Shown one piece after another: positions 4,086-43,277 of a DNA stretch of 44,524 nucleotides. This DNA is from Clostridia bacterium (GTDB taxonomy: Bacteria; Bacillota; Clostridia; Christensenellales; RUG350): positions 1-44,524 of the forward strand of contig JAZSRG010000171.1 of the NCBI GenBank assembly GCA_045538365.1, read 5' to 3'. The notes beneath the pieces were generated by a model. The model was not told the origin of the DNA. It saw only the letters and a list, made by a program, of their open reading frames with translations, and ran no database searches. Every line of letters begins with the position of its first letter. The stretch's first letter is position 1. The translations under genes and the position numbers were made by a program.

Positions 4086-4235
4086 ATGGGGGGGGCAAAA
4101 TATTGTATTGATTGTTTCGCATTTTGCGAATGTTCAATTGTTGGAGTTTGCGCGGACGACATACCATGCGAACATTTCCACGAAATAGACGATAACAGCC
4201 CGGAACAGCCGGGAAATACTAACGATAAACAATAA
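4086..4235 (+). CDS. Small Cys-rich ORF (49 aa) starting ATG-G8
   Basis: Hand translation MGGAKYCIDCFAFCECSIVGVCADDIPCEHFHEIDDNSPEQPGNTNDKQ, with TAA at 4233-4235. Confidence 0.4.
   Translation: MGGAKYCIDCFAFCECSIVGVCADDIPCEHFHEIDDNSPEQPGNTNDKQ
4088..4095 (+). repeat. Poly-G tract G8
   Basis: atGGGGGGGGca, immediately after the start codon of ORF 4086..4235. Confidence 0.95.
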
Positions 4236-10171: not shown

Positions 10172-11740
10172 ATGGGTAACAAAAGAGAGCAAAAAGACGC
10201 TTTGTTAAAAGCATACGCGCAAATAAAAAATAACCCGGCGGAACTTGTCAAACAAGCCGCCCGGAAGCGATTGTTGAACTTTGCCCGATACATGCAACCG
10301 GATATGGTAGTTGAGCCGTTCCACGCTGTATATTACACGGTTTTAGACATGTTCGCACATGGCAAAATACGTAAGTTAATTATTCAGCAACCGCCGCAAC
10401 ACGGAAAATCCGAGGGTTCAAGCCGAAAATTGCCCGCATTCATGTTGGGTTTGAATCCCGATTTGAAAATATGTATTGGAAGTTATGCGGCGACAATCGC
10501 CCGCGACTTTAACCGCGATGTTCAACGCTTGATTGATACGCCAAGTTATCGCCAATTGTTCCCGGAAACCTATTTGAACGGTTCAAACGTGGTAACAATG
10601 GCGAATACTTATTTGCGCAACTCCGATGTTATTGAAATGGTGGGGCATAAAGGTTCGTTGCGCGTTGTCGGTCGTGGCGGTTCGTTGACTTCTAAGACGG
10701 TGGATGTTTCCATACTTGACGACGTATATAAGGACTATGCCGAGGGAAACAGCCCAATAGTACGCGAAGCGTCGTGGAAATGGTACACGTCCGTTGTCCG
10801 TCCCCGCTTGCATAATGATTCGCAAGAACTAATCGTTTTTACACGTTGGAATGATGACGACGTAATTGGACGTATTGAGAAATCCGACGAAGTGATTATT
10901 GATGTAAATTCATGGGACGACTTAAAAGATATTCCGCCGGGCGCATGGGTAAGAATCAATTTTGAAGCGCTAAAAACGGGCGAACCGACTGAAATAGACC
11001 CGCGCCCGGTTGGTGCGGCATTGTGGGAAAGCAGACACAGCCGCGAAAAGTTGGAAGCACAACGGGCACTTGACCCGGTGTTATTTAATTGCCTTTATCA
11101 AGGCAACCCCGGAAGTGCAGAGGGCAAATTGTATCAGCCGTTTAAAACATGGGTTGAAAAATCCGATTACGGGCAATATATCCGTTCGGGCTGTTACGTG
11201 GATGTTGCGGACGAGGGGGACGACTTGTTATTTGCCGCGACGTATGATATTTATAAATCCGACAATCAGTATTGGAACGAAAAGACGCGCCGATTTGAGC
11301 CGATTTTGTATGCGTTAATTACCGATATGGAAATGACGGACGAAAACACCGACGTAACCACGCGCACCGTCCCGGCGTTAATTAATCGAAACGGAGTGCA
11401 AAAAGCATGGGTTGAGAGTAACAACGGCGGTTCGCAGTTTGAAAAGACGATAAAAAGCAAAGTTAAGGCGTTGACCGTTCCGTTTTATCAGTCCGGAAAC
11501 AAGGAAAGCCGCGTTATTACAGCGTCCGCAATGGTAAATCAACAAATCATTATGCCGTTTGGCTGGGAAAAGAGATTTGAACCGATATACAAACATATTT
11601 CCGGTTTTCTCCGTGATTTCGGAGCAAACAAGCACGACGACCCGGAGGACGGATTGACGGGCATATATGAAAAAGAATTGGCGGACGGAAACATTAAGCC
11701 ATACGGACACGAAAACCGGGGCATTAAGGTACGCAATTAG
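10172..11740 (+). CDS. terL: Terminase large subunit
   Basis: Walker A-like QQPPQHGKSEGSS, Walker B VSILDDVYKD, and a C-terminal nuclease-like half. 522 aa. Confidence 0.9.
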   Translation: MGNKREQKDALLKAYAQIKNNPAELVKQAARKRLLNFARYMQPDMVVEPFHAVYYTVLDMFAHGKIRKLIIQQPPQHGKSEGSSRKLPAFMLGLNPDLKICIGSYAATIARDFNRDVQRLIDTPSYRQLFPETYLNGSNVVTMANTYLRNSDVIEMVGHKGSLRVVGRGGSLTSKTVDVSILDDVYKDYAEGNSPIVREASWKWYTSVVRPRLHNDSQELIVFTRWNDDDVIGRIEKSDEVIIDVNSWDDLKDIPPGAWVRINFEALKTGEPTEIDPRPVGAALWESRHSREKLEAQRALDPVLFNCLYQGNPGSAEGKLYQPFKTWVEKSDYGQYIRSGCYVDVADEGDDLLFAATYDIYKSDNQYWNEKTRRFEPILYALITDMEMTDENTDVTTRTVPALINRNGVQKAWVESNNGGSQFEKTIKSKVKALTVPFYQSGNKESRVITASAMVNQQIIMPFGWEKRFEPIYKHISGFLRDFGANKHDDPEDGLTGIYEKELADGNIKPYGHENRGIKVRN

Positions 11741-15904: not shown

Positions 15905-17005
15905 ATGAGTTTAGTAGCAACAAGACTTCAAAATTGGCGAGTTGAAAACCCGGAGTTAGACCGTAATATGACCCGCCCGTGCGAGTATGGCGCGTTGGAT
16001 TTCTTCATTGAGCAGACCAACGCCGCAAACTCTATTCTTTCCCCGTATCTGCGTGAACGTGCGTTTGCGTCTATGGGTAACACCGTACAAATTCCGGTAA
16101 TTGAGTATGACGGAAACGTGCAAGTTTCCAACCAAAGAACATGCGTTATCGCCGACAACGAAAATACGTCCGCACTCTATACGATTGCATGGGTAACGTA
16201 TTCGGTGGGCTTTACAATGGTTCCGGCGGCGTACTCAAACAACGAAATTTCATACGAACATGACTTCATGCGTAAAATGGAAAAGATTTCAAGGGCATTG
16301 GCAAACGAACTTGACAAAGGCGCGGTTGCGGCACTTGAAGCCAACAAAACGCAGGTGTTCAAAGACCTTTTGCAGTATCAGGAGGTAGGAAACGTTATTG
16401 AAGTTCCAACCCAAATGGCAACCGAAATTTTGGGCGATGTTAACCCAATCATGAGGGCAAATTGCTATCCGGAAATGATACACATTATCGGTAACGCGGG
16501 CGTTGATTCGCTTGTACGCAAACTTGCACAACATGGCGTGTATAACGACGTTAACAAGCGTATGGAATACGATAACAAGGTACTCCACTACACTAACAAC
16601 GTAACAAACGAAGAGGGCAAAAACGGAACATTCTTTGCCGCTGTTGACGGTAACGTTGGCGTACTTACACGCGTTGACCGTGAAGCACTCCGCCGCGCCC
16701 GTGCAAACTTCCATGAATGGGATGTTGTAAGACTTCCATTCATTGACCTCCCGGTTGGTTCGCACTATTACACAGCCGTAGGCGACCAATCCGCAATCAT
16801 GGGCGATGCAACCGCCGACCTTACATGTGCAGTTAAGGAGTATTTCGGATTTAGCGTTGACGTGGCATTTGTTGTGGCATACAACAGCGACCCGGAAACC
16901 GTAGCAAATCCAATCATTAAGGCGCAGATTGCCGCACCGGGCGCAAATACTCCAATCGGAATGCCCGTTTATGTTACTAACGCCGCACAATTTCCCGGCG
17001 CGTAA
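15905..17005 (+). CDS. Major capsid protein (putative)
   Basis: 366 aa, follows the scaffold-like gene and is followed by the strongest terminator in the window. Confidence 0.6.
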   Translation: MSLVATRLQNWRVENPELDRNMTRPCEYGALDFFIEQTNAANSILSPYLRERAFASMGNTVQIPVIEYDGNVQVSNQRTCVIADNENTSALYTIAWVTYSVGFTMVPAAYSNNEISYEHDFMRKMEKISRALANELDKGAVAALEANKTQVFKDLLQYQEVGNVIEVPTQMATEILGDVNPIMRANCYPEMIHIIGNAGVDSLVRKLAQHGVYNDVNKRMEYDNKVLHYTNNVTNEEGKNGTFFAAVDGNVGVLTRVDREALRRARANFHEWDVVRLPFIDLPVGSHYYTAVGDQSAIMGDATADLTCAVKEYFGFSVDVAFVVAYNSDPETVANPIIKAQIAAPGANTPIGMPVYVTNAAQFPGA

Positions 17006-19699: not shown

Positions 19700-20466
19700 G
19701 AACAACCAAGATTGGAAAATTTGAAGTTGAGATTTACGACGCTATCGAAGATTTGCCAATGCAACGATTTCATAAGTACAACAAAATGTTGTTAGTTGAC
19801 GCGGGCATTGGTTCGGATTTGTCAGATTTTGACCGACACATTGAGAAAGCCGCGATTTATGCCCGGAGCAAAACCCCGGAATTGGCGGCGGTCGAATTGG
19901 ATAATATGCGACAAAACGTGTATTTCATTCAAACCGGGATTTCTCCCCGCCATTTGGCGTTTGCTGTTTTGGTAAAGAGCATTGACGGGAAAGAATATAA
20001 CGACCTTTCCGACGACGGCTTGCAAAAAATTGTTGACATGTTCGCCGATGTTCCGGTTAAGGACATAACCGCCGAATTTGCGGCGGTCAAAAAAAAAATA
20101 GACGATGAATTGCAAACCTATTTCCCCCGGCTGTTTGACGATGCGACTATAAAGGAGTATTTCGACCAATTAAGACAACGCACGTTGGTTGTATTAGATT
20201 CCATAATTAACGGCGACACGGACGACAAACGGGCGGAAATTGAGAGGATAACAACAGCGTTATTGATGTATAACAAGCCGCAAATTTTTTCCGGTTCGGA
20301 TAATTTGGAAATATCGTTTGACAAGCAATTTGAAAAGATGTGTTTGATGTTGTCCCAACATTTAAACGTAAACCCGAAAAATTATACCGTTTTGGAATAT
20401 TACAACGCGTATGAATATATCAAAGACATGATGAAAGAGAAAGCCAAGAGAGCAAAACGTAAATAA
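19696..20466 (+). CDS. Tail assembly chaperone-like protein (by position only)
   Basis: ATG 19696 overlaps the upstream stop (the track start 19573 is an extension). Lies immediately upstream of the tape measure gene. Contains an A10 run at 20089..20098. Confidence 0.5.
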   Translation: MRTTKIGKFEVEIYDAIEDLPMQRFHKYNKMLLVDAGIGSDLSDFDRHIEKAAIYARSKTPELAAVELDNMRQNVYFIQTGISPRHLAFAVLVKSIDGKEYNDLSDDGLQKIVDMFADVPVKDITAEFAAVKKKIDDELQTYFPRLFDDATIKEYFDQLRQRTLVVLDSIINGDTDDKRAEIERITTALLMYNKPQIFSGSDNLEISFDKQFEKMCLMLSQHLNVNPKNYTVLEYYNAYEYIKDMMKEKAKRAKRK

Positions 20467-23500: not shown

Positions 23501-23598
23501 GAGAAATCAAGGAACAAAACAAACGCCGTGTTTACGTGGATGCGAACGGCAATATAATTGAAGTTTACAAAAATCTAAGACGCAAAATTAAATCATGA
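20575..23598 (+). CDS. Tail tape measure protein
   Basis: 1007 aa with an N-terminal coiled coil, Gly/Ala-rich hydrophobic segments (NPVFIAIAGIAGAGVAF, WAIPAIGIMWGSFAA) and long helical regions. Confidence 0.8.
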   Translation: MPNNPIKYSDLVSPDNSITDLIKQLQDLLKTYNDTAGGIKAEAIQLTQVLKGVSGATDEGRTATKKAADDAERLAKAQRDLAFAESETAQKIAELKAAQNEANQINKLTVKLNSSAEGSYDRLSAQYSLNKIRINAMTQEERELAEEQEGLITKTRELYEEMKRLQEETGKHQLNVGNYPEVSGAIAGVSDKVTELIGLNNAFGQSILALGRGGADSKAVFTAMADGAKALGASLMGLLTNPVFIAIAGIAGAGVAFKWWYDYNAGLVEATRLTQQFTGKSGDDLKAYRNQVQAIADTFDVEFKETLIAANALSKQFGIDANEALQLIQDGFVAGANANGEFIDTLKEYPAYFKEAGISADQFVAIVAQTNKAGIFSDKGVDAIKEANLRLREMTTATAEALEGIGISSEQVQADLQSGAKTTFQVMQDVSAKLNELPESSAAVGTAIADIFGGPGEDAGLQYLQTLRDISTNLDDVKTKAGILGQLQEQQLQSQLELQNALSGLFDLTGGNFETLQTRVKIFINGALTGLIKGVINLANYLIDFYNNSLLLRAAWQGIVVTFKNAFDTIGNLFGYFMDVLRAVGSTIKGVFTLDWDEFKAGLSGFANALPNLVKAQINDVRENITEGIENINNRLEPITIPVTVDNAEVEQVAAQVVKSVEKAAQTGDGGTKPKPIERMLGITPIDTKKMLGGVKKTTQDTLTTVDNVITEATQETKQRGTDIYSVFGLNLDDDTKAGIDSSVQYAKDALNSYIDEYIAATEKKVEAADRDVEAAQRALEVEIENRNAGYAHNVATAQKELEMAKRNQEKALREQEKAQKAQAAVQSIMQIGDLVTASAMIWSQLGFPWAIPAIGIMWGSFAASKVKAAQLAKTQTYGDGGVELLQGGSHQSGNDIDFGTRPDGTRRRAEGGEFFAVINKRNSRRFRHLIPDIVHSLNNGTFPAKYMNAYATGDGLTLNIGGNSPDLRALSDDVREIKEQNKRRVYVDANGNIIEVYKNLRRKIKS

Positions 23599-25805
23599 AC
23601 CCAAAATATAGATTCTTTTTGCAGTTGAACGGGGGCGGCGAGAAAATCGCCTCTAACCCCGTTTTTAAGGATGATATGACGTTGGATTATGAGTTGGAAA
23701 GCAACCAACGTTTTTATCGTGCCAAGTTGTCCGGTAAATTTTCATTTGTCCGTCAAGATTTCGCAACAATCATGGGGGCGGCATTTGATACCGTGTATTA
23801 TTTTTATATCGAAAAATCCGACGATTGGGGGCAAACATGGACGCAATATTATAAATCAATGTTCATGCGTACCGATTGCACGATAAACACGGACGACCAA
23901 ATTATTTCAGTACAGCCGAACCCGATAGACCAATATAACGACGTTTTGGCGGGACTTGAAAAGGAATATAACCTAATATCATTAGCCCCGGCAATAGAGC
24001 GAATAACATTACAGAAACGCCCGTTAATTCAAATATATATACCGGGCGAAAATATCGTATCATGTTTTTTGTCCGGGTTATCATGGGAGCAAGACGCAAA
24101 CGCAATTGATAGCGTTAGCGATTTAGAAAATATATACCATTTTGCCGCTATTACAAATATTGCGTCAATAACATTGTCGGTTGGCACTCCACAAAACACA
24201 ACTGAACAACAATATTTGGATGCAAACCCGTGGATAAATGAAGCAAGGGGGCAATATATTGGCGATTTGCGAACATATAAGTTTATCAATCCGGATAATG
24301 GCTATTATATCCAAGCGGAAAATCCGGGACAAAGTGGGCGTTATTTGCTATTCGATGCCGATAACGTGCAATTAGCCGCCACGCCTATTTTTACAGACCC
24401 CGACCCAACGTCATACGGGGCGAATTTCCGTTTTGAATATGGGTACGATGTAGAAGATGCAACATATCAATTCGCTTTCCTTTTCCAATCAGTCGGGGCA
24501 AGCGTTCCCGTAATGGGGCGTTATCTGTTAGACGTGGAAACAATCGCGGGTTTGAATACATATGAATTGCCCGTTGATGATATGGTAGGGAACAATCGTA
24601 ATTACCGCCGGGCAATAGGTTACGCCGTTACGGATGTAATAGCCGTTTCCATGAACTTTTCAGATACTCCAACCGAATACGGATTGGCGGACAATGGAAA
24701 ATATTACAATCCGCCTTATTCGTTTTTTGGACAAAAATTTTATCCTATCGCCCGCACGCAATGGGGCAATTATTCAATTTGGTTTGCATTCCACTATTTT
24801 GATGATGCGTTAGAAGTGGCAGGGCGCAAAGCATACACGTTGTGCGATAGTTACCCGGTATCGTCTGTTTTATCTGTTTTGTTACAGCAATTCGCGCCGG
24901 GAATCACGCATGAAGCAACGCCAGAATATAGCCAATTTCTATATAATGCGAACAATCCGATAACGGGTTATTCTTTCCAGTTGTTTGTTACTCCGAAATC
25001 AAATATATTGGTTGGAGATTATCAAACCCCGGTACAGAAAGCCCCAACCACATTGCAACAATTTTTGGATATGTTGCGCAATACATTTCAATTGTATTGG
25101 CATATTGAGGATAACAAATTACGTATTGAACATATTAGTTGGTATCGCAACGGCGGAACATACACCGGAAACGCGGTTGTCGGTTATAATCTTACCACGT
25201 TGGAAAACGTGAGAAACGGCAAAAAATGGGCGTTTGGTACTTCTGAATATACCTTTGACAAAGAGGATATGCCGGAACGTTACCAATTTAGTTGGGCGGA
25301 CGAAGTGACAGAACCATTTGAGGGGCAACCAATACAAATCGTTTCTAAATATGTGCAACCGGGCAAGATTGAAGAAATAAACATTGGCGGTTTTTCGTCT
25401 GACATTGATTTGATGTTGTTAAATCCGGAGCAGTTCAGCCAAGACGGGTTCGCGTTATTAGCAGCGACGCAAGGGGCTAACGGTTGGGAATTACCATTTG
25501 TTCGCCGGGATGTTGACAACGTTACATATTATTTGCAAAACGGTTTAGTTGCAATGGTTAATTTGCAACCTCAATATTGGCTTTATGACATGCCCGCCCG
25601 CAATCTTATTGTCAACGGGGTTCAAGTTTGGGCGTATGGAATCCAACGCAGAAAGTCGCAAACGCTGACTTTCCCGGTTGGGGACGACGACCCGGATTTG
25701 TTGCAACTTGTTAAAACTTACATTGGTAACGGTCAATATGAAAAATTATCTATAAATTTGTTGTCAAGGACAGCAGAAGCAACATTGAAATATGACACAG
25801 AATAA
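23595..25805 (+). CDS. Tail tip/baseplate structural protein (736 aa)
   Basis: ATGA overlap with the tape measure stop. Size and position are typical of distal tail or tail-tip proteins. Confidence 0.55.
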   Translation: MNPKYRFFLQLNGGGEKIASNPVFKDDMTLDYELESNQRFYRAKLSGKFSFVRQDFATIMGAAFDTVYYFYIEKSDDWGQTWTQYYKSMFMRTDCTINTDDQIISVQPNPIDQYNDVLAGLEKEYNLISLAPAIERITLQKRPLIQIYIPGENIVSCFLSGLSWEQDANAIDSVSDLENIYHFAAITNIASITLSVGTPQNTTEQQYLDANPWINEARGQYIGDLRTYKFINPDNGYYIQAENPGQSGRYLLFDADNVQLAATPIFTDPDPTSYGANFRFEYGYDVEDATYQFAFLFQSVGASVPVMGRYLLDVETIAGLNTYELPVDDMVGNNRNYRRAIGYAVTDVIAVSMNFSDTPTEYGLADNGKYYNPPYSFFGQKFYPIARTQWGNYSIWFAFHYFDDALEVAGRKAYTLCDSYPVSSVLSVLLQQFAPGITHEATPEYSQFLYNANNPITGYSFQLFVTPKSNILVGDYQTPVQKAPTTLQQFLDMLRNTFQLYWHIEDNKLRIEHISWYRNGGTYTGNAVVGYNLTTLENVRNGKKWAFGTSEYTFDKEDMPERYQFSWADEVTEPFEGQPIQIVSKYVQPGKIEEINIGGFSSDIDLMLLNPEQFSQDGFALLAATQGANGWELPFVRRDVDNVTYYLQNGLVAMVNLQPQYWLYDMPARNLIVNGVQVWAYGIQRRKSQTLTFPVGDDDPDLLQLVKTYIGNGQYEKLSINLLSRTAEATLKYDTE

Positions 25806-40228: not shown

Positions 40229-40948
40229 ATGATAACAAAAGTTCATTGCATGTTTGAGCAATCCGGAACATTCAAAAACCAATTTATCGCATTGGGTATT
40301 GATGCAGAGGATTACGACATACAAAACAATTTCGGACAAACGGACAACGTTATTGATTTGTTCGCCGAAATTGAAAACGCCTATATGGGGGGGGTAAGCA
40401 TATTTGATAATATAAAACAATCCGATTTGATAATTGCATTTTTTCCATGTATTTATTTTGAAGCATTGCAAATGCCGTATTATACGAATAAGAATAACAA
40501 CAATAAGAAAGAGGGCAAAGAAAAGTTTGATATTATTTTAGACAGAATCGAAAAACGCGAAAAGTTATACAAGTTATTATATAAACTTATCGCAATAGTT
40601 GAGATTCGCGGATTAAGGCTAATTATTGAGAACCCGGCAACGCAACCGCATTATCTTTTGTTTGTTGAAAACTTTTATTGTAAGCCGACAATTATAGATA
40701 AAAATAGATTGTTACGCGGGGATTATTATAGAAAACCTACGGCGTATTGGTTTTTTAACATAAAACCTACATACGGAGAGAGTTTCAAAGTGACAAAAGC
40801 CGTTAAAACAATACAAGATGCGGCAAGAGGAAAGGACGGTTTGTGTAGCGAGGAACGGTCAATGATTAGTCCGGAATATGCAAAGAACTTTATTTGTGAT
40901 TTCATATTAGGAAAAGAGAACGAAAACACACAAGCAAGATTATTTTGA
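40229..40948 (+). CDS. Divergent DNA C5-cytosine methyltransferase-like protein (239 aa)
   Basis: MFEQSGTF (motif I-like), FFPCIYFE (PC motif IV-like), IIENPA (ENV-like). Short for the family. Carries an in-frame G8 tract. Confidence 0.4.
   Translation: MITKVHCMFEQSGTFKNQFIALGIDAEDYDIQNNFGQTDNVIDLFAEIENAYMGGVSIFDNIKQSDLIIAFFPCIYFEALQMPYYTNKNNNNKKEGKEKFDIILDRIEKREKLYKLLYKLIAIVEIRGLRLIIENPATQPHYLLFVENFYCKPTIIDKNRLLRGDYYRKPTAYWFFNIKPTYGESFKVTKAVKTIQDAARGKDGLCSEERSMISPEYAKNFICDFILGKENENTQARLF
40387..40394 (+). repeat. Poly-G tract G8 (in frame)
   Basis: tatatGGGGGGGGtaag encodes M-G-G-V. Confidence 0.95.
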
Positions 40949-40949
40949 T

Positions 40950-41507
40950 ATGAAGATTGATTGTATTATCGGAATAGACCCCGGCGCGTCCGGTGGTATC
41001 GTAACATGGCGACCGAACGCCAATACAAAGGCAATCAAAATGCCGCGTAATATTGAGGATTTCCGCGCTTATATGGATTGGGCGAAAACCAATTTTAACC
41101 CAATCGTCTTTATGGAAAAAGTGACCGTAAGACCGGACGACGTGAAAGTTGACGGAACGGCGGCGAACATGGGTAAATTATACCGCGTTCAAAAGATGAT
41201 TGCAGATTTTGAGCAAATGAAAGCGTTGTTGACCGTGTTAAACATTCCTTTCGTATTGGTTAATCCTATGAAGTGGCAAAGCGAATTGGAATTGCGGGTA
41301 ACAGCAAAGGGAAAACCGAAAGAGGAAAAAAGCGACCGAAAAAAGCGTTACCGCGACATTGCCGGGACACTTTACCCGGAAATCGCGCCGACCTTATGGA
41401 ACGCGGATGCAACGTTAATAATGCACTTTGGACGTTACATGTTGCAGAACAAACGCGATTGGGTTTTAGAGAATTTACCAACGAAAATGCACAATACATT
41501 GTTTTAG
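40950..41507 (+). CDS. RuvC-like Holliday junction resolvase
   Basis: IIGIDPGASGG at the N-terminus, FMEKV, and NADATLIMHFG near the C-terminus. Confidence 0.65.
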   Translation: MKIDCIIGIDPGASGGIVTWRPNANTKAIKMPRNIEDFRAYMDWAKTNFNPIVFMEKVTVRPDDVKVDGTAANMGKLYRVQKMIADFEQMKALLTVLNIPFVLVNPMKWQSELELRVTAKGKPKEEKSDRKKRYRDIAGTLYPEIAPTLWNADATLIMHFGRYMLQNKRDWVLENLPTKMHNTLF

Positions 41508-41509
41508 CC

Positions 41510-42366
41510 ATGAACGAACAATTGAACAAAAAGATAAGTTTTGCGATTTCAATAATTCAGAGTGCCGCAGAGCAAGCCGGGAAAGCCGGGCAACCGTTAG
41601 AAATATGTTACAGCGGGGGCAAGGATTCCGACGTAATTTTAGAATTGGCGAAAATGGCATTGAGGGGGGGGGGCAATACCGCGCAATTTATAAAAACACG
41701 ACAATTGACCCGCCGGGAACAATTAAGCATTGCAAGGAAAAAGGCGTTGAAATTCTCCAACCAAAAACGACGTTCCGGGAACTTATCGAAAAACGTGGCA
41801 GTCCGTCCCGATTTCGCCGCCATTGTTGCGAGGTATTGAAAGAATACAAAGTATTGGATTATGCCGTTGTAGGAATCAGACGAAGCGAAAGCGTTAAAAG
41901 GGCGCAACGATATAAAGAACCCGAAATTTGCCGCGTCTATAACAGCAAAGAAAAGGTAAGGCAATATTTACCGATTCTTGAGTGGACGGATAAAGACGTT
42001 GAAGATTTCATTTTGATTCGCGGGATAAAATGCCACCCGCTTTATTACGACGAAATGGGGAATTTTCATGTTGAACGACGGTTGGGTTGCATCGGTTGCC
42101 CATTGCAATCCCAAAAGCAAAGACGGGGAGAATTTGCCCGTTTTCCTAAAATGTTACGTCTTTACGTCCAGGCGCAACAAAAGTTTGTTGATACGCACCC
42201 GAATTGTAAAAGTAGGGAATATTTCAAGGATGCAAGCGAAACATTTGTTTACGAACTTTATTGTAATAATATAGTCGAATTTCGGGAAAAGTTCAAATGC
42301 AATTTATTTGATTCCGGGATTGACTGCAAAACGTATCTTGAAAATCAATTTGGCGTGAAACTTTGA
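41510..42366 (+). CDS. PAPS reductase / DndC-like PP-loop ATPase; reading frame broken at a G10 tract
   Basis: Frame A (41510-) gives ...EICYSGGKDSDVILELAKMALRGGG. Frame B continues QYRAIYKNTTIDPPGT...RHCCEVLK...GIRRSESVKRA...LGCIGCP. G11, G8 or a -1 shift restores one 285-aa protein. Confidence 0.75.
41664..41673 (+). repeat. Poly-G tract G10 (frame-breaking)
   Basis: cattgaGGGGGGGGGGcaatacc. Confidence 0.95.
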
Positions 42367-42399
42367 TTTTAGCCCGAATTTGGCGTTATCTTCTGTAAA

Positions 42400-42621
42400 A
42401 TGATAAAGAGTATTGACGACATGGCAAAAGCCCCGCAAATCGAAAATTCGGCAAAAATAACGTTGGAATCATTCGCCGAACTTGCAAAGCAAATGCGACA
42501 TGCACAACGTCGTTATCGGAGATTTGGCAAATTGGAAATATTGGAACAAATGGAACGATTAGAAGCGGAATTTGATTTGCTGATTGCGGAAATATTAGAA
42601 CCACAACCGAAATTATTTTGA
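42400..42621 (+). CDS. Hypothetical helical protein (73 aa)
   Basis: ATG ORF between the two modification genes. Confidence 0.55.
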   Translation: MIKSIDDMAKAPQIENSAKITLESFAELAKQMRHAQRRYRRFGKLEILEQMERLEAEFDLLIAEILEPQPKLF

Positions 42622-42622
42622 T

Positions 42623-43277
42623 ATGTTAATAGAAAGATTTGGTACAATTACATTGGTTTGCGGGGATTGCATGGAATACATGCAGAATTGCCCGGATAAA
42701 TCATTTGATTTGGCGATTGTTGACCCGCCGTATGGATTAGGCATTGACGGGCAAAAAGAGCAGAAAAGCAAAAACCCGAAACACAGCCGAAAATATCATA
42801 AAAGAAAAAATTGGGATGATGCAACGCCGGACAAAATGTATTTTACCGAATTGGAAAGAGTTACGAAAAATCAAATTATATGGGGGGGGGAATTACTTTG
42901 TTGAACATTTGCACAAAGGAACAAAAGGTTGGATTGTATGGTTTAAGGGTCAAACCGGGTTAACAATGAGCGATTGCGAATTGGCGTATAGTTCGTTTAA
43001 TTGCGTAACGCGCGTTGTTACTATCAATCGCGGGGAACTTGTTAAACAAAATACATTCCACCCCACAGAAAAGCCGTTAAAGTTATATGAATGGCTGTTG
43101 ACTAATTATGCCGAACCGGGGCAAAAGATAATTGACACGCACGGCGGAAGTATGAGCCATGCGATAGCGGCGCACAAATTGGGTTTTGATTTGACGATAA
43201 TAGAGAAAGACCCGGAATATTACGCGCAAGCGAAAGCCCGGTTGTTGGAGTATCAAAAGCAATTAACATTATTTTAA
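42623..43277 (+). CDS. Beta-class N6-adenine/N4-cytosine DNA methyltransferase; reading frame broken at a G9 tract
   Basis: N-terminal part has LAIVDPPYGLG (motif IV). C-terminal part has FHPTEKPLKLYEWLL and IIDTHGGSMS (motif I). G8 would read ...NQIIWGGNYFVEHL in one frame. Confidence 0.8.
42882..42890 (+). repeat. Poly-G tract G9 (frame-breaking)
   Basis: attataTGGGGGGGGGaattac. Confidence 0.95.

Follow-up and report, generated by a model that had tools for sequence, protein, structure and literature searches.

Phase-variable DNA methyltransferases are well known from bacteria. The Type III mod genes of Haemophilus, Neisseria and Helicobacter carry simple-sequence repeats, and slippage at these repeats switches the enzymes ON and OFF and gives rise to phasevarions. 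The polyG Type IIG enzyme cj0031 of C. jejuni is phase-variable as well (PMC4889913). Hypermutable polyG tracts have also been described in the Fletchervirus phages of Campylobacter (Sorensen et al. 2021, Cell Rep 35:109214, as summarized in PMC12633550), and a polyG tract in the methylase gene of Bordetella phage BPP-1 is noted in passing in the same source (Liu et al. 2004, via PMC12633550). For agt of phage T2, Gomez, Barrick and Waters (2025, bioRxiv, PMC12633550) described a contingency locus whose state decides between exposure to TgvAB, a modification-dependent defence, and exposure to McrA/BC restriction. The homopolymer of this gene frameshifts and reverts about 1000-fold faster than point mutation (PMC12633550).

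We analysed a stretch of 44,524 nucleotides, referred to as the window, which is the complete genome of a PDS1-like, virulent-type gut Bacteroidales siphovirus. Three poly-G tracts in neighbouring DNA-modification genes of this phage are probably another case of the phenomenon known from Campylobacter phages and T2 agt. As in Fletchervirus, G runs of 7–11 occur in phage coding sequences, and the summary of that work describes tract lengths that give ON/OFF subpopulations in each stock, with a bet-hedging logic. According to the same summary, the Fletchervirus tracts lie in receptor-binding protein genes and act on host recognition, whereas those of the window lie in DNA-modification genes of a Bacteroidales siphovirus; switching was shown experimentally for Fletchervirus and is deduced from natural variants here. 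T2 agt shares with the window phage a homopolymer in a DNA-modification gene and the same proposed trade-off logic (PMC12633550). It differs in being a single glucosyltransferase gene with an A9 run in a hydroxymethylcytosine phage, while the window phage and its relatives have G8–G11 runs in two methyltransferase genes and a PAPS-reductase-like gene, that is, three adjacent switches. The strong confinement of long runs to modification genes seen here was not reported in the BASEL survey of PMC12633550. The BPP-1 tract, as mentioned there, likewise consists of G residues within a phage-borne methylase gene; phage and host are unrelated to those considered here. Bacterial phasevarions resemble the window in having a simple-sequence repeat inside a DNA methyltransferase reading frame, and they also show ON/OFF slippage and methylome heterogeneity. 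However, they are chromosomal, they usually belong to restriction-modification systems, and what defines them is the altered host regulon that results. The methyltransferases of the window are phage-borne orphans; no partner endonuclease is in view, and a regulon is not expected. For a lytic phage, the term phasevarion, which implies a regulon under the control of methylation, is not an obvious fit. The relevant features of the window are as follows.

4086–4235, + strand: 49-aa Cys-rich ORF, whose ATG runs into a G8 tract (site D, 4088–4095); by translation the tract is in frame
40229–40948, + strand: methyltransferase A, phrog_757 family, C5-cytosine-methyltransferase-like, 239 aa, ON in the window
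40387–40394, + strand: site A, G8 (ATG GGG GGG GTA; Met53-Gly-Gly), in frame, 3′ of motif I and 5′ of the catalytic PC motif
40950–41507, + strand: RuvC-like Holliday junction resolvase, phrog_1770 (E 6e-26), tract-free
41510–42366, + strand: PAPS-reductase-like (PP-loop) gene, frameshifted (OFF) in the window, 284 aa if G8
41664–41673, + strand: site B, G10 as assembled (in-frame form AGG GGG GGG), just 3′ of the SGGKDS PP-loop
42400–42621, + strand: 73-aa ORF between the PAPS-reductase-like and methyltransferase C cassettes, weak phrog_15937 match
42623–43277, + strand: methyltransferase C, beta-class N6/N4 DNA methyltransferase, frameshifted (OFF) in the window, 217 aa if G8
42882–42890, + strand: site C, G9 as assembled (in-frame form TGG GGG GGG), encoding WGG of IIWGGNYF

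G runs of one to five nucleotides occur 5791, 1536, 393, 73 and 28 times in the window. Runs of six or seven are missing, and the only runs of at least eight are the four tracts listed above. Given P(G|G)=0.255, one would expect about 8.5 runs of at least six and 0.55 of at least eight, so that the distribution is bimodal rather than the tail of a geometric one. Three of the four tracts fall into the modification genes (approximately 2.2 kb, 5% of the genome), for which hand arithmetic gives a binomial chance of roughly 5e-4. GGG makes up 19% of the glycine codons, and among the 69 Gly-Gly dipeptides GGG-GGG is confined to the tract genes. Counting of G runs and checking of frames confirmed the tract coordinates and frame states of the initial annotation in full, as well as its remark that the only further G run of at least eight sits in an ORF directly after the ATG, where it is in frame. 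No C run of eight or more had been noticed, and the longest C run is indeed six. It had also been stressed that all four tracts lie on the sense strand. This is correct in that all are G and none is C, but it adds little beyond that, since every gene of the window is on the + strand.

Profile searches upheld the calls of a RuvC-like resolvase, a PP-loop PAPS reductase and a DPPY beta-class N6/N4 methyltransferase. The repaired PAPS-reductase-like protein scored 65.9 bits against PF01507 PAPS_reduct (cut-off 22.5), matched phrog_424 and carries the SGGKDS PP-loop at residues 35–40. The further label 'DndC-like' found no specific support: TIGR03183 gave 20.7 bits against a cut-off of 290.4, and dndA, dndB, dndD and dndE are missing among the neighbouring genes, so assignment to DndC or to a phosphorothioation role was rejected. 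Repaired methyltransferase C scored 46.9 bits against PF01555 N6_N4_Mtase (cut-off 26.7), matched phrog_67 with an E value of 9e-43 and has DPPY at residues 34–37 ahead of THGGSMS near residue 172. Methyltransferase A matched PHROG phrog_757 'DNA methyltransferase' (E 1.4e-23); the profile search returned no Pfam or NCBIfam match for it, including PF00145, and a PDB sequence search returned nothing meaningful. Its invariant motifs are F9-x-Q-S-G13, P73-C74 and E134-N135. The AF2 model (pLDDT 84) had DNMT3A/3B and DNMT1 as top PDB folds at E values of 7e-4 to 2e-3, with TM scores of only 0.40–0.42. For the 49-aa Cys-rich ORF, profile and PHROG searches gave no family match.

Relatives of the window were located using the resolvase, a conserved core gene between the cassettes, as an anchor. 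When the 3-kb region was compared by megablast with 50,697 phage records, no match was obtained, and a scan of JGI metagenomes with the site B flanks gave 0 matches. Exact-protein look-ups with the window resolvase and methyltransferase A were also without match, and cluster members were used instead. IMG/VR contained just distant relatives of two module genes (53–70% amino-acid identity), which served for the question of generality and not for same-site comparison. The metagenome contigs thus assembled for comparison (L numbers) are 94–100% identical to the window. Some of the ENA and Logan contigs, several in number, may stem from repeated assembly of one set of runs, and contig counts are not counts of independent populations. 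Segments of the module are missing from some of them. Window positions 40233–40944 are lacking in L095 and L097, and methyltransferase A therefore behaves, by this sequence comparison, as an insertable cassette; the same holds for methyltransferase C because positions 42623–43267 are lacking in L097, L100 and L103. The 73-aa ORF is conserved in the relatives and called as 66 aa in L097–L104.

The initial annotation had proposed a phase-variable module and had suggested related phages as a check, with tract-free relatives or invariant lengths counting against it. The tracts were present at the same codons in the contigs, with lengths from G7 to G11 and toggling frames, and the proposal is thereby supported. 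Including the window, lengths range from G8 to G10 at site A, from G7 to G10 at site B and from G8 to G11 at site C. At site A, G8 was found in L099 and L115, G9 in L112, L113, L116, L117, L143 and L144, and G10 in L114. Site B is G7 in L101 and L102, G8 in L099 and L105, and G9 in L097, L100 and L103; G10 occurs in the window only. At site C, L112 has G8 (ON, 201 aa), L120 and L122 have G9 (OFF, 93+103 aa), L143 has G10 (OFF) and L144 has G11 (ON, 218 aa). In several contig pairs the tract difference is accompanied by just 0–3 substitutions over 3–13 kb. The site A flanks are identical at 800/800 nt among L113–L117, which include G8 (L115), G9 (L113) and G10 (L114) alleles, and L113 and L114 differ by one SNP in 3.3 kb besides the tract. 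L097 (G9) and L101 (G7) share 800/800 nt around site B, with about three substitutions in 8.2 kb, and L143 and L144 have no mismatch in 13,049 nt besides G10 versus G11 at site C.

Such differences might be technical, in which case the true genome would have G8 (or G11) at every site and the G9 and G10 of the window as well as the differences between contigs would be sequencing or assembly errors. Homopolymers are error-prone on some platforms, no relative shares the G10 of the window at site B, and a single sample might have been assembled twice as L143 and L144. In addition, L101 and L102 stop at, or 6 nt short of, the poly-G of another cassette, so assemblers struggle there. Against this, the same lengths recur across assemblies (G9 and G7 at site B in three and two contigs, G9 at site A in at least six). 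Site D is G8 in 10/10 genomes of the same assemblies although its flanks are divergent, which shows that G8 runs are not simply mis-assembled. An interrupted form of site B, AGA or AGT followed by G6, is always intact and never varies in L120–L124. Error could moreover create neither the tracts nor their confinement to modification genes, and cultured, plaque-purified and annotated phages show the same frameshifts (see below). We consider a technical origin very improbable.

Intact and split genes track tract length in the calls of independent gene callers. The frames of the PAPS-reductase-like gene and of methyltransferase C are open with G8 or G11, and the window has G10 and G9, respectively. 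Methyltransferase A is called as an intact protein of 239 aa, while its G9 and G10 alleles give 215 aa, 49+158 aa or 59+171 aa. The PAPS-reductase-like gene is called as 284 aa, as in L099 where it is intact, or as 252 aa. For methyltransferase C the calls by tract are 218, 132 and 93+103 aa. Thus in-frame and out-of-frame states both occur, and at site C both G8 and G11 are ON.

Full-length protein could nevertheless be made from out-of-frame alleles by programmed ribosomal frameshifting or RNA-polymerase slippage, so that the genes would never be OFF. Long homopolymers can cause transcriptional slippage, which is established for A/T runs, and both halves of each gene stay open. However, restoring the frames of the window takes a −1 shift at site B and a +1 shift at site C, the G7, G9 and G10 alleles of relatives call for yet other shifts, and in-frame alleles exist at the same sites. 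No stimulatory RNA structure was predicted 3′ of any tract (z-scores +0.4 to +1.3). A programmed ribosomal frameshift site was rejected on the grounds that the required shift varies by site and relative and that downstream structure is missing. Recoding as the whole explanation is extremely unlikely in our view; low-level leakiness of this kind could coexist with contingency loci.

At sites B and C, OFF alleles make up most of the sample. Recurrent inactivation of dispensable genes would give this as well, and it raises the possibility of non-adaptive hot spots: G-rich Gly-Gly codons would form runs by chance, slippage would repeatedly knock out dispensable genes and be tolerated by selection, long runs would stand out in methyltransferase genes because they are purged in all others, and no switch would be selected. 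The genes are indeed dispensable cassettes missing in close relatives, and one synonymous change, AGA to AGG, suffices to make the site B tract. The substitution pattern points the other way. Out-of-frame alleles have no other lesions and dN/dS values of 0.06–0.17 (about 0.17 for methyltransferase A); values involving L121 were discarded because an indel invalidates the ungapped comparison. Between the window and L097, both OFF, the PAPS-reductase-like gene has 18 synonymous and 6 non-synonymous changes, a dN/dS of 0.08 and no extra stops. Methyltransferase C of the window and L120, again both OFF, differs by 18 synonymous and 5 non-synonymous changes, with a dN/dS of 0.06 and no extra stops. 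OFF alleles with a dN/dS of 0.06–0.08 and free of secondary lesions must have been functional through nearly all of their divergence, and these comparisons support the view that out-of-frame alleles remain under purifying selection. The in-frame G11 allele, three steps from G8, also argues against mere inactivation.

To assess generality, we surveyed 593 kb of IMG/VR phage loci, of which methyltransferase/PAPS-homologous DNA makes up 13.9%. This DNA holds 12% of the G/C runs of length 5, 39% of those of length 6, 81% of those of length 7 and 91% (39/43) of those of at least 8, an enrichment that is inflated by kinship among the loci and corresponds to perhaps 12–15 independent tract sites. Outside modification genes the counts for lengths 5, 6, 7 and at least 8 drop steeply (221, 19, 3 and 4), which fits purging. 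Inside them they are 30, 12, 13 and 39, a rise with length that a neutral, tolerated tail would not produce. Many other small accessory ORFs of the same loci are without tracts. The IMG/VR tracts occur in the C5, Dam, N6_N4 and PAPS families at differing positions. Across all phages compared, the phrog_757 family alone carries tracts at three different positions, which again speaks against chance hot spots. Cultured B. fragilis phages have poly-G at the third phrog_757 position: it is G10 or G8 and frameshifted in BF10P1, BF8P1, BF10P3 and BF766P1, and G5 or an interrupted G7 and intact in vB_BfrS_23, UZM3 and BF10P2. Taken with the selection data, these observations make non-adaptive hot spots unlikely.

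The three tracts of the module are thus probably hypermutable simple-sequence repeats, that is, contingency loci in accessory phage DNA-modification genes. Slipped-strand mispairing during phage DNA replication would add or remove G residues in runs of at least eight, far more commonly than ordinary substitution occurs. Each change of length would shift the gene between in-frame (G8, G11) and out-of-frame (G7, G9, G10) states, the latter presumably cutting the enzyme short before its catalytic or AdoMet-binding parts. Because the three genes would switch independently, a phage population could contain up to eight modification states; that of the window is methyltransferase A ON with the PAPS-reductase-like gene and methyltransferase C OFF. 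We infer slippage as the mechanism; its rate, the ability of a single lineage to switch back, the effect on methylation and the source of selection are inferred as well. The benefit would be a hedge between restriction-modification and modification-dependent restriction: self-methylation would evade host restriction endonucleases, and in other hosts it would make the phage a target of modification-dependent (Type IV-like) defences or carry some other cost.

The closest cultured relatives, picked by portal protein, are PDS1, PD491P1, AS73P1, BKO1-3 and C1_85S2P. The three-gene module is absent from all five. In PDS1, PD491P1 and AS73P1, G and C runs do not exceed six, BKO1-3 and C1_85S2P have one intergenic G8/G9 tract each, and BKO1-3, alone of the five, has a phrog_757 methyltransferase, which is tract-free. 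The trait therefore belongs to the cassettes and not to the whole phage lineage. A literature search on homopolymers or frameshifts in Bacteroides phages found no publication. We tentatively suggest that the DNA-modification genes of gut and environmental phages, largely those infecting Bacteroidota, may in general carry long G/C homopolymers as a selected trait. Exchangeable cassettes would then bring their own switch, and combinatorial 'modification phasotypes', here 2^3, would be routine.

Phage methyltransferases are usually read as fixed anti-restriction genes, and frameshifted copies are usually dismissed as sequencing errors or pseudogenes, which annotation tacitly 'repairs' or leaves out. 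In the present phages, a frameshift looks like a functional setting of a switch. The tract pattern is visible in public metagenomes and in experimentally available cultured Bacteroides phages, and it provides several natural loci at which the bet-hedging idea put forward recently for T-even phages can be tested. If this is true, annotation pipelines should flag G/C runs of at least eight in modification genes instead of calling pseudogenes, and phage-host matching by methylation motifs would have to take mixed populations into account. Stocks of Bacteroides phages used in therapy or as tracers, such as the B40-8 and GB124 types, would be mixtures of phenotypes. Which hosts a gut phage can infect would depend on a modification state that is inherited yet reversible and changes quickly, and, should the feature be as widespread as suggested, stochastic epigenetic bet-hedging would be a widespread layer of phage counter-defence and not a curiosity of a few model phages.

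The window has a G+C content of 42.7%, and all credible genes lie on the + strand. Because its PHROG matches include the large terminase, portal (E 1e-204), structural proteins, tape measure, exonuclease and replication initiator, it can be assigned to a siphovirus. The portal protein shares 76-77% identity with its counterparts in the Parabacteroides phages PDS1 and PD491P1, the Bacteroides phages BKO1-3 and C1_85S2P and the Alistipes phage AS73P1. The record is complete and circularly permuted relative to its relatives. Its large terminase is a single 522-aa gene (10172-11740), whereas PDS1 (L090) has two annotated CDS (23502-24515 and 24608-25054). The division in PDS1 may come from a frameshift, from an intervening element or from the annotation itself. 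An A10 run (AAV KKK IDD) is located at 20089-20098, inside the ORF directly upstream of the tape-measure gene. In siphoviruses, the frameshift of the tail assembly chaperone is usually found just upstream of the tape-measure gene.

Runs of one to five G occur 5791, 1536, 393, 73 and 28 times in the window, respectively. Runs of six or seven are absent, but four long runs are present: G8 at 4088, G8 at 40387, G10 at 41664 and G9 at 42882. No C run longer than six was found, and the run count thus agrees with the initial annotation, which had placed four G tracts at these positions and seen no C run of eight or more. A first-order model predicts approximately 8.5 runs of at least six and 0.55 runs of at least eight for the window. 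The gap at six and seven combined with the excess at eight and above shows that the tracts are not a compositional tail. GGG accounts for 19% of the glycine codons in the window, and among its 69 Gly-Gly dipeptides GGG-GGG is used only in tract genes.

Tract genes and the intervening gene in the window
4086-4235, + strand: small ORF, tract 4088-4095 (site D)
40229-40948, + strand: methyltransferase A, tract 40387-40394 (site A)
40950-41507, + strand: RuvC-like resolvase
41510-42366, + strand: PAPS-reductase-like gene, tract 41664-41673 (site B)
42623-43277, + strand: DPPY methyltransferase C, tract 42882-42890 (site C)

Reading frames were judged by rebuilding each tract gene with alternative tract lengths. 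Methyltransferase A (239 aa) is open with G8, its length in the window. The PAPS-reductase-like gene and methyltransferase C each require G8 or G11, and the window, as assembled, carries G10 and G9, respectively. At site D, the first G of the tract is the G of the ATG and the 49-aa Cys-rich ORF is in frame. The rebuilt genes therefore confirmed the frames first read from the sequence (in at 40387, out at 41664 and 42882, tract at the ATG at 4088). Once the tract was set to an in-frame length, no additional stops were present in any allele.

The repaired PAPS-like protein matched PF01507 and the repaired methyltransferase C matched PF01555, both above threshold, while the gene between methyltransferase A and the PAPS-like gene matched the resolvase family phrog_1770, in line with the resolvase, PAPS reductase and DPPY N6/N4 methyltransferase initially proposed. 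Methyltransferase C belongs to the beta-class N6/N4 enzymes. The label 'DndC-like' had to be dropped, as the PAPS-like protein does not fall within DndC; it is a generic PP-loop enzyme. For methyltransferase A, phrog_757 'DNA methyltransferase' was the sole family match. The best PDB fold matches of its predicted structure (pLDDT 84) were DNMT3A/3B and DNMT1, with a TM of only about 0.4, and its invariant residues agree with C5 motifs I, IV and VI. On the modelled fold and these residues, we describe it as C5-like, a putative rather than a proven C5 enzyme.

IMG/VR contained distant homologues only, and a look-up of the exact resolvase and methyltransferase A proteins gave no match. Relatives were found via the resolvase, whose 97%-identity cluster has 100 members; contigs encoding members were compared with the window. 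In common parts these contigs are 94-100% identical to it. The initial annotation had left to related phages whether the same tracts recur at the same codons; they do, and lengths vary at sites A-C (G7-G11).

Tract lengths in the window and related metagenome contigs (L numbers)
Site A, methyltransferase A: G8 in window, L099, L115; G9 in L112, L113 (and 9 similar places), L116, L117, L143, L144; G10 in L114
Site B, PAPS-reductase-like gene: G7 in L101, L102; G8 in L099, L105; G9 in L097, L100, L103; G10 in window; interrupted AGA/AGT+G6 in L120-L124
Site C, methyltransferase C: G8 in L112; G9 in window, L120, L122; G10 in L143; G11 in L144
Site D, small ORF: G8 in 10/10 genomes covering the site

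Third-party gene calls follow tract length: 284 aa (G8) versus 252 aa or no call for the PAPS-like gene, 239 aa versus 215, 49+158 or 59+171 aa for methyltransferase A, and 201 or 218 aa versus 93+103 or 132 aa for methyltransferase C. Often the tract is the sole difference between relatives. Flanks of site A are identical at 800/800 positions among L115 (G8), L113, L116 and L117 (G9) and L114 (G10), and over their whole overlap L113 and L114 differ by 1 SNP in 3.3 kb. The same holds for the flanks of site B in L097 (G9) and L101 (G7; 800/800), with approximately 3 substitutions in the 8.2 kb overlap. L143 and L144 show 0 mismatches over 13,049 nt, the sole gap being G10 versus G11 at site C. 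Since G11 restores the frame, with one glycine more, in-frame (ON) alleles exist at two lengths with out-of-frame (OFF) lengths between them, as expected for a tract that drifts out of frame and returns.

These differences are unlikely to stem mainly from technical error: the same lengths come back in separate assemblies (some ENA and Logan contigs may share source runs), the interrupted G6 alleles of site B are invariant and always intact, G8 at site D is constant in the same data, and cultured phages show the same pattern. Assemblies or their graphs do break at variable tracts, through real heterogeneity or poor coverage. In L097, L100 and L103 the sequence continues through the G9 tract of an N6_N4 methyltransferase cassette (12276 in L097), whereas L101 ends exactly at this tract (8343) and L102 6 bases short of it (8277). 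Among the Logan contigs, several (L113-L119) share an end point 44 nt past the resolvase stop codon. The site D ORF (MGGAKYCIDCFAFCECS...), which lies after an RNase_T-like exonuclease gene, had no family match; its G8 is retained in all 10 genomes despite divergent flanks.

Between the window (G10) and L097 (G9), both OFF, the PAPS-like gene differs by 18 synonymous and 6 non-synonymous changes (dN/dS 0.08). Methyltransferase C of the window and L120, again both OFF, differs by 18 and 5 (0.06), and pairs of methyltransferase A gave about 0.17. By these ratios, OFF alleles are not decaying pseudogenes: purifying selection acted across nearly all of the divergence, and the OFF states are therefore young. 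The serious rival explanation is that of tolerated, non-adaptive knock-outs. Against it speak the dN/dS values, the existence of an ON allele with G11 and the fact that run counts climb with length only inside modification genes. Programmed frameshifting was rejected because the required direction differs among sites and among relatives and no downstream structure was found. The best-supported reading is slippage-driven switching, in which slipped-strand mispairing at runs of at least eight G would turn the three modification genes ON and OFF independently.

Methyltransferase A (40233-40944) or methyltransferase C (42623-43267) is precisely absent in close relatives. In other relatives, these slots or a place at about 3216 of the window are occupied by different methyltransferase-like genes, likewise with G8-G9 runs. 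By these alignments, methyltransferases A and C are precise presence/absence cassettes. The junctions at 40944-40952 and 42617-42625 both have TTTGATATG (stop and start codon one base apart), which occurs 4 times in the window versus 0.7 expected and may provide recombination microhomology for cassette exchange. L106-L108, relatives lacking G runs of at least six, have another cassette after the resolvase (about 7267-9472 in L106) with a 233-236-aa ORF, a 192-aa ORF that matches N6_Mtase faintly and a tyrosine recombinase (PF00589). It could represent recombinase-based variation of a modification system or an integration module.

Generality was surveyed in 89 IMG/VR loci (593 kb), where methyltransferase or PAPS reductase homologues account for 13.9% of the sequence; length-5 runs served as internal control.

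Share of G/C runs located in modification-gene DNA
Length 5: 12%
Length 6: 39%
Length 7: 81%
Length at least 8: 91% (39/43)

The nominal p for this enrichment, 3e-29, treats the runs as more independent than they are, the number of independent sites being perhaps 12-15. Tracts occur at differing positions in C5 (PF00145), Dam (PF05869), N6_N4 (PF01555) and PAPS reductase genes. Out-of-frame examples are L006, L007 and L008 (PAPS), L002 (C5) and L055, compared with its in-frame twin L056. Cultured B40-8-like B. fragilis phages carry a phrog_757-family gene with a poly-G site near residue 201, frameshifted by G10 in BF10P1, BF8P1 and BF10P3 and by G8 in BF766P1, and intact with AGT+G7 in BF10P2 and G5 in vB_BfrS_23 and UZM3. 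In L098, the tract lies at about residue 65 of a 280-aa phrog_757-family gene. Together with residue 53 in the window, this gives three independent tract positions in the family.

Among the IMG/VR loci, a group of DPPY methyltransferases in L010-L017, L021 and L022 (about 4200) contains in-frame C8-C9 on the coding strand, encoding Pro-Pro-Pro (KLPPP), so long tracts in these genes are not restricted to G. Others have G9-G11 at the extreme 3' end (FDF-GGG; 4622 in L057/L081, 4631 and 684 in L075), where a gain or loss of G would not switch the gene off but would give the protein a different or longer C-terminus or join the gene to the following ORF. BKO1-3 (L091) and C1_85S2P (L093), cultured relatives in which the three-gene module is absent, each contain one long tract (G8 at 16291 and G9 at 42356; C8/C9 on the coding strand). 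It is intergenic, between a large tail-fibre-like gene and a downstream lysis-region gene, and differs in length between the two phages.

Known phage contingency loci comprise homopolymers of T2 and T4, among them one in the modification gene agt; a polyG tract in the methylase of BPP-1 has been mentioned, not studied (PMC12633550). For phages of Bacteroidales or of the gut, and for multi-gene methyltransferase modules, our literature search gave no such report. By analogy with T2 agt (PMC12633550), switching may balance evasion of restriction against modification-dependent defence or cost. The added interest of the present phages lies in the adjacent triple switch, in its association with cassettes and in how strongly long runs are confined to modification genes.
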